Source of the DNA: Octopus vulgaris
Taxonomy: Eukaryota
NCBI GenBank assembly: GCA_951406725.2
Contig: OX597832.1
Span: forward strand, 10,664,001-10,728,000
Direction of reading: 5' to 3'
Length of the DNA: 64,000 nt
Shown: one piece after another, positions 4,905 to 63,220 of the stretch
How positions within the stretch are numbered: position 1 is the first letter of the stretch
Layout of the letters: each line of letters starts with the position of its first letter
Notes under the pieces: model-generated
Told to the model about the DNA's origin: nothing
Database searches by the model: none
The model's input: the letters and a program-made list of their open reading frames with translations, nothing else
Position numbers and translations under genes: made by a program

Positions 4905-5297
4905 GGTGGAGGCGCAATGGCCCAGTGGTTAGGGCAGCGGACTCGCGGTCATAGGATTGCGGTTTCGATTCCCAGACCGGGCGTTGTGAGTGTTTATTGA
5001 GCGAAAACACCTAAAGCTCCACGAGGCTCCGGCAGGGGATAGTGGTGATCCCTGCTGTACTCTTTCACCACAAATTTCTCTCACTCTTACTTCCTGTTTC
5101 TGTTGTACCTGTATTTCAAAGGGCCGGCATTGTCACTCTTTGTGTCACGCTGAATATCCCCGAGAACTACGTTAAGGGTACGCGTGTCTGTGGAGTGCTC
5201 AGCCACTTACACGTTAATTTCACGAGCAGGCTGTTCCGTTGATTCGGATCAACGGGAACCCTCGTCGTCGTAACCGACGGAGTGCTTCCATCCATCC
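4905..5297 (+). mobile_element. tRNA-derived SINE family A, full length, with TSD
   Basis: A box TGGCCCAGTGG, B box GTTTCGATTCC, (TCCA)n tail; 11-bp TSD ATCGACAGTGA at 4894-4904 and 5298-5308; about 96% identical to 41732-42118. Confidence 0.95.
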
Positions 5298-14712: not shown

Positions 14713-14847
14713 ATTGAAAGCAGTAAGATAAACAGCATTGTGTTTTCACCATTTGTTTCTACACATATTTCGTCAGAGGAACACAATTATTGCATTACTT
14801 ACATTATTTATATTTGACGGATATTTAACCTAATCTTGTTTGTTGTT

Positions 14848-14893
14848 AACACAACGTTTCGGCTGATATACTCTCCAGTCTTCATCAGTTGTC
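14848..14893 (-). ncRNA. Minimal type I hammerhead ribozyme motif (left arm)
   Basis: Minus strand reads GACAA CTGATGA A GACTG GAGAGTATAT CAGCC GAAA CGT T GTGTT: both core boxes intact, stem II and stem I each with one mismatch, palindromic AACGTT stem III. Confidence 0.65.
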
Positions 14894-15089
14894 TTGGGGA
14901 AATTTTGAACCTGGTTTCTCATTTCTAAGGTATTTTTTTTATGTTGTTAGGATTATTATTATCAATGTCAAAATTCCGAGTTCGATTCCAGGCAGTGACA
15001 ATAATAATAATAGCAACAATAATGATATTGATAATAACATCATCAAAAAATACCTTAGGAATAAGAACCCAGGTTCAATATTTCCCCAA

Positions 15090-15135
15090 GACACCCGATG
15101 AAGGCTGGAGAGTATATCAGCCGAAACTTTGTGTT
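15090..15135 (+). ncRNA. Minimal hammerhead motif (right arm), core mutated
   Basis: GACAC CCGATGA A GGCTG GAGAGTATAT CAGCC GAAA CTT T GTGTT: stems I and II pair fully, but CTGATGA is CCGATGA and GAAACGTT is GAAACTTT. Confidence 0.55.
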
Positions 15136-15922
15136 AACAACAAACAAGATGAGGACAAATATCTGTCAATTGTAAATAATGTAAATAATATAAATAATGT
15201 ACGTAATTCCTCATCTCTTAAATATAGAACTGCATTCCCAATATTTGTTTTAAAAAAACAGATGAGATCAAAGACCTGGTTTGCTTCTATGGATGTATAT
15301 CAATTTGGAAATTTATTTAGCTGTGAATGGAATCTTGCTTCAAGTATGTTCACTTGGTTTTCTAATAAATCCCTATTAAACCGAAAGTTTCCCAACATGC
15401 AGCCTGAATTTCAATGGAAAGTAGACACAAAAATTTGTACGCATCATGTTAAATACATCCAAGTACTATAGCGAGTTGGATGTCGATGTTTTCTATAACT
15501 CACCAGTGAACCAAATTCGTGCAAAACATTATACAAAAGTGTTTCAGTTAGAATCGCTTAGTTATTTTACGGATATATTTATTCATATTTTGGTGTTTAA
15601 ATATATGCTTACTCACTTTTCACGACAAGGGTTTATTGACAATATTACGTAGACTATTCATTTCACAAAAACGGAAAAAAGTTATTTCCTTCAAATAAAG
15701 AGGAAGCTTTGTGCACAACAGAAGCGTTTTTCCGATCATACATATAATCATACACACACACACATTCACAGACATTCACACACACATTGAGAGAAAGATG
15801 GATAGAGGGGGAAGAGATACGCATATGAATGTATGTGTAAATATATTTATGTATGTATGAATATTTATATATTATATATTCTATACTTATAAATACATAT
15901 ATGTATGCCTATATATAAGTAA

Positions 15923-41731: not shown

Positions 41732-42118
41732 CATGTGGAGGCGCAATGGCCCAGTGGTTAGGGCAGCGGACTCGCGGTCATAGGATCGCGGTTTCGATTC
41801 CCAGACCGGGCGTTGTGAGTGTTTATTGAGCGAAAACACTTAAAACTCCACGAGGCTCCGGCAGGGGATGGTGGTGATCCCTGCTGTACTCTCTCACCAC
41901 AATTTTCTCTCACTCTTACTTCCTGTTTCTGTTGTACCTGTATTTCAAAGGGCCGGCCTTGTCACTCTCTGTGTCACGCTGAATATCCCCGAGAACTACG
42001 TTAAGGGTACACGTGTCTGTGGAGTGCTTAGCCACTTACACGTTAATTTCACGAGCAGGCTGTTCCGTTGATTCGGATCAACCGGAACCCCCATCGTCGT
42101 AACCAACGGAGTGCTTCC
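41732..42118 (+). mobile_element. tRNA-derived SINE family A, full length, with TSD
   Basis: Same A and B boxes and body as 4905-5297; 10-bp TSD ATAACTGATC at 41722-41731 and 42119-42128. Confidence 0.95.
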
Positions 42119-42518
42119 ATAACTGATCTTTATCATAAGAACTAACGATTGAAATCCTATGCTGTAGGTGGAACTCCTGATTTCATTCTTCGATGCATAT
42201 GGAAATGAAAGGGGCTTCTGCTGTCGCTGGACTGCCTATAAATAACGACAACGTTACATTCCATGCATAACCTCATAGCAGAAATCGTCGAAAGTGCAAT
42301 AAAATTACAGAAAACCTAGATGTTCACCGCTGAGACGTTTATTATAATGTTCGATCTTGTATTTTTCTGTAGCAAAACAGCGACAACAATAATAATGATC
42401 CGTCATTTAGGGGAAATAGCAGGTAATATCGACTTACCACGAACTCAAATTTCATAATGTGAATAGACTAATCTGTGGAATGTAATATAATGACAGTGAA
42501 TTGTTTTCTGTACTTCAG

Positions 42519-60895: not shown

Positions 60896-61108
60896 CAAAT
60901 TCTATATGACAATACCCTATCTTGACCTTAGTTATAATTCGATCGTCCTCTCCTTCTTCCTTGTTTTTCTCACTCTCTCGCTCACTAACAGCGTTAGATT
61001 TTGACTTTCACCATCCCTCTCATTTCTCTGAATGTTTTGTTTGTTCTCTCGGTGGTAATGCGTACGCCTTACCCACCTTTTGCTTTTATTCAATAACTAC
61101 CTTACTTC

Positions 61109-61362
61109 CGTTTAGTGTACTAGCCATCTGAATGTGGCTAGCCACTAGAGGTGGGTGTTACTGATGCTTTTAGCCCTAGGAGATCGACGTCACCAGCTGG
61201 CCTTAGACACAATTTCTGTGCCCTTATGATATTTGCAAAGATCATAAGGACACAGAAATTGTGTCTAAGGCCAGCTAGTGACGTCGATCTCCTGGGGTTA
61301 AAAGCGTCAGTAACACCCACCCCCAGTGGTTAGCCACATTCGAATGGCTAGTACACTAAACG
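61109..61362. repeat. 254-bp spacer-less palindrome (127-bp arms, 11 mismatches)
   Basis: CGTTTAGTGTACTAGCCAT...ATTTG|CAAAG...ATGGCTAGTACACTAAACG; axis between 61235 and 61236; also visible as the twin ORFs 61138-61320(-) and 61151-61333(+). Confidence 0.98.
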
Positions 61363-61599
61363 TTGTCGAGCGGTTACTGTTTACATCTCATTCGGAGATT
61401 TATTAATGCCTACCTTACTTCCGTATTTACAATTACTCCTAAGTAATCGTCTTTATTTCACGAGACATTTATCACGCGCATTATTATAAGTATCTAACGG
61501 AGCAGGGATTATACTGAACATGCTCTGTTAAATGGCTTCCTCAGAGCCCCAGGTAATCGTTCTTATTTTTTGCTTTTGTCTCGCTCCCTCCATGCATTT

Positions 61600-61670
61600 A
61601 TGTATTCCTGAGTGTTAAACTAATACAACCACGTGTTGCTCCTTCATCCGTCTTCGCCTTTCATAATTAT
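61600..61670 (+). repeat. Penelope-type terminal tail fragment
   Basis: TATTCCTGAGTGTTAAACTAATACAACC..CCTTCATCCGTCTTCG; direct copy at 63140-63220. Confidence 0.65.
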
Positions 61671-62138
61671 ATTATATTATATATATAATCCGGTATGGTA
61701 TGGTTTATATATAACCGTATTATCTTTAATAAGCATTTTCCTTATCTAATAGGAATTGGACTGAAGTGATTTCGGTGATGTCAGAGTTAGGGGAAACTTG
61801 TATCTGCCAATGCAGAGATGGTGAATGGAGTTGAGCACCTCTCACTTATAAAATTCCGCAATGACCTACGCAAGACAGTGCCCCTGACAGTCAAGCGCAA
61901 TTGCTTCGATGAATTAGCAGAATAAGAGAATAAAAAGGCGAGTGTCTGGCGTCTTCAAAGAGTCAGTGCTCCAAGTAGGCTATTCGCGTTAGTCTTGGAT
62001 GGCAAGTAGACTTGTAGAAGGACAAGTCGGAGTTCAAAATCAGTGATGCAAAGCCTCTGCCACTTTTGTGGGCTACCATGACAGAGGTGGTGTCGTGATA
62101 AAAATACCTATTGGTGGTAAGTTAAAAATTCACCTCAT

Positions 62139-63050
62139 TTGAGAGTGAAAATACCAAGCAAAATAGCTAACGATAACAATGGTGAAGATGCCTTACCCAA
62201 CAGATATCCCACTGTGCAGCACAGTGGGCCCGGTCGTAATTCAGCCACTACTAACCATGCTACGAAACATGAGTGGAGTAAGCAAGTAAATATGGTAGTT
62301 ATGGTATGTTACTACCGTAGAATCTCAGTGGGTGCAAATGACGTGCCTGTCAGAGAGGCACAGAAAACGAAGGTAGAGAGAATGGAAAGCAATGGATCTG
62401 TTTGAAATTACTGAACAGAGATTATATGACCAAGTAAGAGCAATACGAAAGAAAAGACGTTTAAAAGAATTAGAGCTGGAAACTGTTAAAAGGATATCGG
62501 TTGATGCTGGTCATATGAGAAACGAAAGTGGTATAGTGGAAGAGAATGAAAATTGTTTGCAAGAATATACAACCGTGAAGTGTGAAAGAATCGTGATGAG
62601 TCATTACTTAAATAATGAATGCCAATTAATAATTAGCAGGATTTTGGATATATTGAGTACAGAAATGACAGGACCTATGAAGCGATTTTAAGAAGGCTAA
62701 ACAATGGTGATTATTTCAAGAAGCAAATAAAGTCAATAATATATTGAAAGACATTGAAACAAAGAGCATCACACAAGCAAATTATTTCATCAAGACTGCA
62801 AGTAGGATTGTGGCAGAAAAGATAGAACTGAGACCTAGAAAGAATAGAAAATTGACAGAGAGAAGTGGAAATGCACAACGTTGGTGTAAAAGGAGAATTT
62901 CAGAAGATATAAACTCCTTGAACAGTGTTGTATCAATACTTGTCAGGAAAAGAAAGGGAGAATTGAAGAATGATCGCAAATTTGTAAAACTGAGGCGTAT
63001 ATACAAAAGGCCTGAATTTCGTAATTAACGAACTGAAACAGCGCATGCAA
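62139..63050 (+). pseudogene. R4/Dong-type non-LTR element, N-terminal ORF fragment (putative 5' UTR from about 61760)
   Basis: HEWSKQVNMVVMVCYY (cf. KW..E.N..VM.CYY), EITEQRLYDQVRAIRKKRRLKELELE (cf. TEQRL.DQ.R.I.K..WL..LELE), RWCKRRISEDI (cf. PWWKRRIE..I), INELKQRM; frameshifted and truncated before RT. Confidence 0.85.
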
Positions 63051-63139
63051 AGTTAACTTCTTAACATTTATACAAACGTGTGTGTATGGGTATATACATA
63101 CTCTCACACACATATATTTATATACATGCATTTATGTAT

Positions 63140-63220
63140 GTACTCCTAAGTGTTAAACTAATACAATCACCCGTTGTTCCTTCACCCGTCTACGTCTTTT
63201 ATTTTCTATAAATCTAAACT
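63140..63220 (+). repeat. Penelope-type terminal tail fragment
   Basis: TACTCCTAAGTGTTAAACTAATACAATC..CCTTCACCCGTCTACGTCTTTT; homologous to 61600-61670 and 48010-48096. Confidence 0.65.

Follow-up and report, generated by a model that had tools for sequence, protein, structure and literature searches.

A spacer-less palindrome in the Octopus vulgaris genome is probably a truncated retrozyme copy inserted in the manner of a Penelope-like element

The window analysed here is a 64,000-nt stretch of Octopus vulgaris DNA, and a 313-bp insert within it forms a palindrome with a tail on one side. This insert is probably a 5'-truncated, head-to-head copy of a hammerhead-bearing retrozyme repeat, likely written by a Penelope-like reverse transcriptase (RT)-endonuclease acting in trans. 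Copies of the same family elsewhere in the genome establish a 359-bp unit, tandem arrays of that unit, two fixed 3' ends, a variable inversion point, and target-site duplications (TSDs) of 12-17 bp.

The palindrome and its host site

In window coordinates, the parts of the insert are:

61097..61111, plus strand: left target-site duplication, sharing its final 3 nt with the beginning of the inverted arm
61109..61235, minus strand: inverted arm without the tail; it runs from position 312 down to 183 in the 359-bp unit of the retrozyme
61232..61239, no strand: axis TTTGCAAA; this self-complementary 8-mer belongs to the unit itself, at positions 179-186
61236..61362, plus strand: forward arm; unit 183-312, in the same sense as the family hammerhead, the hammerhead itself lying outside
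61363..61409, plus strand: one-sided tail of 47 nt; unit 313-359, between the family's two fixed 3' ends
61410..61424, plus strand: right target-site duplication
61112..61113, with its partner at 61358-61359, plus strand: private 2-nt change in both arms, absent from every other genome copy

The two arms are 127 nt each, abut with a spacer of 0 nt, and are 91% complementary, with 11 mismatches and no indels; on the plus strand the mismatched positions pair as 5 G-U, 5 A-C and 1 A-G, exactly as the initial annotation had counted them. The 15-bp direct repeat that it had reported around the hairpin and a 47-bp tail is also present, at 61097 and 61410 and at no third place in the 64-kb window. 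The duplication itself is refined to 12-15 bp, because 61109-61111, the end of the left 15-mer, double as the start of the inverted arm; this 3-nt overlap is possibly a priming microhomology. The hairpin had been called GC-richer than its surroundings, which holds (45-47% against 30-39% in the adjacent bins, and 46% over the whole copy) apart from an equally GC-rich stretch at 61800-62100. Folded as RNA, the hairpin is predicted to reach -223.7 kcal/mol (z -25), a value equalled by 0/100 shuffles. No second copy of the hairpin element was found in the 64-kb window. The private 2-nt change has 1 exact match in 2.8 Gb, and short-read depth over 61358-61359 is almost entirely of the family letter; its presence in both arms would fit a variant template or a later arm-to-arm conversion.

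As far as can be tested, the palindrome is not an assembly artefact: its arms differ at 11 sites, and short-read contigs cross its junctions. The left junction is crossed by contigs of runs X15 and X16, whose flank differs by ~3.5% from the window, and the right junction by one contig of run X18, whose flank is near-identical to the window; none of the short-read contigs spans the palindrome core. Three runs show a joint that skips 61110-61452; it may come from an allele without the insertion, or from another copy of the host repeat. A diverged paralogue of the host repeat (L062) has the same flanks on either side of a single 15-mer, and reads as an empty site by paralogy. This bears out the 15-mer as a TSD, as the initial annotation had read it.

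The host, at 61000-63200, is an older low-copy repeat with paralogues L062-L064, and the target of the window copy is not a microsatellite. Two frame fragments of the host repeat, at 62377-62691 and 62711-63028, have no Pfam match; presumably they resemble a LINE. In run X4, which is RNA only by guess, family-level contigs lie on the element and its flanks are without cover, a pattern that speaks neither for nor against transcription. Elsewhere in the window, a separate inverted repeat at 14794-15189 (399 bp, 81%) has in each arm what on visual inspection looks like a decayed minimal hammerhead core, and these cores did not pass a strict hammerhead scan; the repeat is likely an older Penelope-type stump from another family. 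The window also contains a 386-bp repeat pair with 96% identity, at 4906-5291 and 41735-42120.

The 359-bp repeat family and its predicted hammerhead

The mobile unit is a 359-bp non-coding repeat whose tail continues directly into its own start; it closes on itself, tail to start, and has no LTR structure. No coding capacity was found in the unit, and two Penelope proteins matched only the flanks of its loci. Scoring 40 of the 2,654 candidates in the 2.8-Gb genome gave at least 87 family matches, and an 18-nt tail pattern has 993 exact genome matches, against 0 for the reversed control. Tandem arrays reach about 2.5-3 units (L039, L044), and the copies include 5'-truncated, tandem and circularly permuted forms. 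Family copies have their outer ends in common, and their flanks and duplications are each their own. A copy count, suggested by the initial annotation as a check, gives ~1,000 copies; their inversion points vary, and not every copy is palindromic. The window copy consists of unit 183-359 forward and 183-312 inverted, that is, the 3' half of the unit plus its inverted copy. Its axis, TTTGCAAA, is one among four palindromes of at least 8 bp in the unit, and also serves as axis in 5 other insertions, which have their own flanks and belong to different subfamilies (6 of the first 25 loci in all, these 25 having been chosen by likeness to the window copy). At L034-L037 (C1:94322042-94326496), at least 4 tandem 1.38-kb units each hold a near-full retrozyme monomer, together with a piece that by eye resembles a LINE reverse transcriptase gene.

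At unit ~100-145, about 40-80 nt upstream of the axis, lies a predicted type I hammerhead motif with a 6-bp helix I, a core with U3, a short helix II, GAAA, a loop 3 of palindromic sequence, and a GUC site. The motif search returned 34 matches, 24 of them identical, and 33/34 have U at position 3 opposite G8, which may weaken cleavage of the predicted ribozyme. Sibling families keep the fold with changed letters: L003 (L003:2142-3146; ~78% identity), L131 with its relatives L135-L154 (L131:5077-5317; ~70%), and L114 (L114:13-280; lower). Their hammerhead cores differ (U4C, canonical, and U3-A8), and the L003 and L131 families have the same inverted layout as the 359-bp family. Over four sibling families the helices covary, with 5/14 pairs changed on both sides, and the covariation score was reached by 0/500 shuffles, a figure that is not a probability because there are only 7 distinct rows of related sequences. 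Rfam hammerhead models gave no match at E up to 10 in three family loci, and in the window region and the three loci Rfam returned merely sub-threshold generic hairpin (microRNA) matches. A scan of 61097-61424 found no hammerhead in the window copy, which begins at unit 179-183, below the motif. The window copy is a truncated member of the family that would have lost its hammerhead at birth and is likely dead.

Insertion ends, duplications and the making of the palindrome

The first sample comprised 95 loci, from which 32 were removed (repeat views, members of one tandem block and non-family loci) to leave 63 insertions, 40 inverted and 23 non-inverted. All 40 inverted insertions are head-to-head, and 35/40 follow one end rule: one end carries the tail (unit ~359) and the other lies ~45 nt upstream (unit ~314). 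The remaining 5/40 have one or two non-standard ends. Among the 15 inverted insertions that were not retrieved with the window copy as query, 10/15 obey the rule and 0 are like-ended. The second sample consisted of 40 loci on contig C1, drawn by tail pattern; 38 were taken largely in list order, skipping already-seen places and a few others, and 2 were picked for facing tails. Here, 19/28 inverted insertions obey the end rule (18 by script, 1 by eye), 7/28 combine a tail end with a non-standard end, and 0 have two standard tail ends. The other 2/28 (L178, L179) have two tail-less ends and represent one duplicated sibling-family event. In this duplicate the palindrome (L178:1525-1758, L179:1537-1771) recurs 54 kb apart, and the host flanks are mirrored too. 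Non-inverted copies have their 3' end at the tail-less site in 17/23 cases and at the tail end in 5/23; the tail-less site is therefore used without inversion as well, and behaves as a start site.

Outside microsatellites, a TSD of at least 11 bp accompanies 21/25 inverted insertions versus 3/17 non-inverted ones (Fisher p 2.7e-5; lengths 12-17 bp), and mismatched flank pairs, used as a control, score equally high in 10/300. The corresponding counts in the second sample are 9/14 and 1/9. Microsatellites flank 21/63 insertions in the first sample and 17/40 in the second, counted as raw shares. The inversion point differs among copies, and most invert away from TTTGCAAA. In 16/34 two-arm insertions the tail-less arm outreaches the tailed one on the 5' side by >10 nt, and the arms are of equal reach in 8/34. 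Overlaps of at least 2 nt occur at 9/15 unselected junctions, against a null of 16%, a figure that BLAST ends inflate. One inverted insertion with a 14-bp duplication (L004:1494-1794, C1:217013625-217013925) has arms of two subfamilies (8/20 diagnostic sites), whereas the arms of the other 34 insertions differ at 0-4 diagnostic sites; its mixed arms would point to two RNA templates in one event, or to whole-arm conversion. A 'nearest arm' test (15/35) is weak for young copies, since copies almost identical to one another score above an own arm that has mutated.

We propose a pair of nicks, made by the enzyme 12-15 nt apart with one on each target strand; each of them would prime reverse transcription on retrozyme RNA, one from the tail end (unit 359) and the other from unit 312-314. 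Both cDNAs would stop early and then join through short complementarity. In the window copy, both would have reached TTTGCAAA, which is likely the site at which the two cDNAs were joined, leaving a palindrome that has no spacer and carries the tail at just one end; the 11 arm differences would have accumulated after insertion. In mammalian L1 twin priming, both target nicks likewise prime, microhomology joins the products, and the TSD is kept. The inverted and forward pieces of L1 are without overlap, whereas the arms of the octopus family cover the same sequence and therefore form a true palindrome. A broader model of asymmetric twin priming, whose chances we put at about half, would assign the two nicks to different RNA start sites, allow the use of two RNAs, and leave a TSD mainly when both nicks prime. 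Against the proposed origin stand the lack of a homologous-ended partner among the elements searched (see below), the U3-G8 core, the non-standard ends in 7/28, the two tail-less ends of L178 and L179, a tail above the published length, the choice of the first 25 loci by likeness to the window copy, the presence of junction overlaps in no more than 9/15, and the equally good fit of snap-back to the window copy taken by itself.

The mirror arm could instead have been made by snap-back, in which the cDNA of the same element would fold at TTTGCAAA, copy itself, and stop 47 nt short. For the window copy alone this possible route fits equally well, given its equal arms, its palindromic axis and the private 2-nt change found in both arms; in the wider family, the native palindrome is the axis in 6 of the first 25 loci, the arms are of equal reach in 8/34 insertions, and they are almost always of one haplotype. 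However, 16/34 tail-less arms contain sequence that is missing from the tailed arm, the supposed 'stop' coincides with the usual 3' end of non-inverted copies (17/23), and the arms of L004 come from two subfamilies. Because fold-back of a tailed cDNA cannot make those 16/34 two-arm insertions, snap-back is not supported as the general mechanism. The initial annotation, which had offered it, may still be right for the window copy; as the explanation of the palindrome we consider snap-back improbable. Across the family, the counts favour priming from both nicks. The initial annotation had also suggested that the 254-nt hairpin and its tail are a mobile rod-like RNA, retrotransposing as one unit. 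Such an RNA would explain why six loci have the axis and tail in common, and its predicted fold is very stable, but the six loci fall in different subfamilies. In 5/6 of them the arms are 1-4% apart, versus 3-17% from the short arms of the other five, and the window copy, the most decayed of the six, shows 8.7% within the locus and at least 9.7% between loci. Arm differences shared between loci have opposite polarity at 11 sites versus the same polarity at 12, most copies have another axis, and the hairpin is without a hammerhead. The unit that moves is the 359-bp repeat, with an axis that varies between copies, and the rod-like RNA is so unlikely that we regard it as largely refuted.

The remaining readings give the hairpin a use in the host or a different class of element. 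A hairpin used by the host would be transcribed and then either edited by ADAR or diced to endo-siRNAs that silence the family. A read-through transcript would indeed form a 127-bp duplex, the insertion is common to haplotypes with a ~3.5% flank difference, and small RNAs from Penelope copies have been reported in a rotifer. An endo-siRNA hairpin locus is one with transcription and 21-22-nt siRNAs; for this hairpin Rfam gives nothing above threshold, and the arm differences look like decay. When the arm differences are polarised by the family and read on the RNA-sense strand, C>T and G>A together account for 70/132, A>G for 7 and T>C for 12. In the window copy, 8/11 differences are GC-to-AT (one by the nearest haplotype), 1 is T>G, and 2 make up an AG-to-GA swap. 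The arm mismatches are GC-to-AT decay and give no sign of an edited template, a result that bears on template and DNA alike. An origin of the mismatches in A-to-G editing is not supported by these numbers. With 11 differences in 125 positions, the window copy is among the older ones sampled, and it has the most arm differences (in a tie with L028), so pairing has not been preserved. We regard a host-used hairpin as highly unlikely, and a role in endo-siRNA production as at most a side effect. The AG-to-GA swap, at 61342-61343 in the forward arm, creates a local 10-bp palindrome that is absent from the other sampled copies, and looks as a hairpin-templated mutation would. Finally, the insert is short, non-coding and folds back, and the family has ~1,000 copies, often in (TA)n, all of which would suit an ordinary MITE of a DNA transposon. 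A MITE is bounded on both sides by terminal inverted repeats and has a TSD of fixed length, 2-9 bp. Here, the ends are not mutual inverted repeats (the tail is one-sided), the TSD varies over 12-17 bp, the axis varies, and copies are 5'-truncated, tandem or circularly permuted and carry a hammerhead motif, leaving a MITE with virtually no chance of being correct. The preference of the initial annotation for retrotransposition over a MITE is borne out by the one-sided tail, the variable TSD and the 5' truncation, and its link to Penelope-like elements by the combination of inverted copy, one-sided tail and TSD.

Relation to known elements and implications

The animal non-LTR retrozymes described by Cervera and de la Pena (2020, PMC7229834) are tandem repeats of 150-450-bp monomers that carry type I hammerheads, are low in GC and have TSDs of >4 bp. 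Like them, the octopus family has a short non-coding monomer that repeats in brief tandem arrays, a type I hammerhead motif whose helix I is 6 bp, helix II short and loop 3 palindromic, GC of <50%, TSDs of >4 bp, a self-paired predicted circle, and Penelope-like elements in the same genome. Its core differs, with U3 opposite G8. [quoted passage not shown] On the features testable in sequence, the family reads as a retrozyme family and the window copy as a truncated member of it. The words 'inverted', 'octopus' and 'cephalopod' are absent from the main text of PMC7229834. A literature search, judged by its listings, found no description of an octopus retrozyme; supplements may list cephalopod families. 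Retrozymes have been argued to be non-autonomous Penelope derivatives (Li, Clavereau and Pollet 2026, bioRxiv 10.64898/2026.07.22.740005).

Penelope-like insertions have been described with an inverted truncated copy, a one-sided 30-40-bp tail, junction palindromes and TSDs (PMC3846280; Craig et al. 2021, PMC8557442), and self-priming was proposed for the palindromic junctions (Arkhipova et al. 2013, PMC3846280). The octopus family agrees with the endonuclease-bearing elements of these reports in its head-to-head inversion, its junction palindrome, and a tail at one end only (PMC3846280; PMC8557442), in having a TSD with inverted copies and none with plain partial tandem ones, and in its microsatellite bias. 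It differs in the length of the tail (45-47 versus 30-40 nt), in that of the TSD (12-17 versus 8-10 bp in rotifer), and in that an RT-GIY-YIG frame is missing from the unit. The window copy is inserted like a Penelope-like element and is not an autonomous one. Work in vitro with the purified enzyme of Poseidon from Anolis shows that both strands are cut and extended (Frangieh et al. 2024, PMC11167929), and two reverse-transcription start sites downstream of the hammerhead bound the tail (PMC11167929). Two start sites bounding the tail and AT-rich targets are common to Poseidon and the family; the Poseidon sites, as reported, lie in the ORF start and are used without strand preference, whereas the family's genomic copies use one site per end.

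No RT or GIY-YIG frame was found in the unit or attached to it. A search for an autonomous partner covered 39 stretches around GIY-YIG matches (30 of 150 scored among 6,136 GIY-YIG candidates, plus 9 longer stretches), and none had an end homologous to the unit. A 70% match in L131 was rejected as a partner end, being a separate sibling retrozyme insertion with a closed non-coding unit. The end of the L131 Penelope element, which by eye resembled the two start sites, was dropped as well; its own two ends lie elsewhere. That element (L131:1321-4483) is a 5'-truncated Penelope-like element whose 766-bp inverted copy is 100% identical; both its ends contain a hammerhead motif, and an extension of ~30 nt is present on one side. 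A young Penelope-like family (L126:1745-4087 and many other places) has many intact 781-aa RT + GIY-YIG frames, preceded by a second open frame of 330-380 aa. Neither this family nor the other GIY-YIG elements examined have an end homologous to the unit.

The layout of inverted copy, one-sided tail and TSD is the one published for Penelope-like elements, carried here by an animal non-LTR retrozyme, and insertions of this kind are known from animals. Three points are possibly novel: the end rule in quantified form, the association of duplication with inversion, and the insertion with arms of two subfamilies; within limited library coverage, a literature search turned up no treatment of twin priming for Penelope-like elements. 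The locus itself is of little weight, as one likely dead stump among ~1,000 copies. For annotation, a spacer-less palindrome with a one-sided tail and a 12-17-bp TSD in such genomes should be read as a Penelope-type insertion, and labels such as MITE, microRNA precursor or editing target should be avoided for it. The family bears on how Penelope-like elements make their inverted repeats and tail, a question testable with the purified enzyme already described. If asymmetric twin priming is true, Penelope palindromes would owe their origin to it and not to self-priming, and the 359-nt RNA would serve for testing it.
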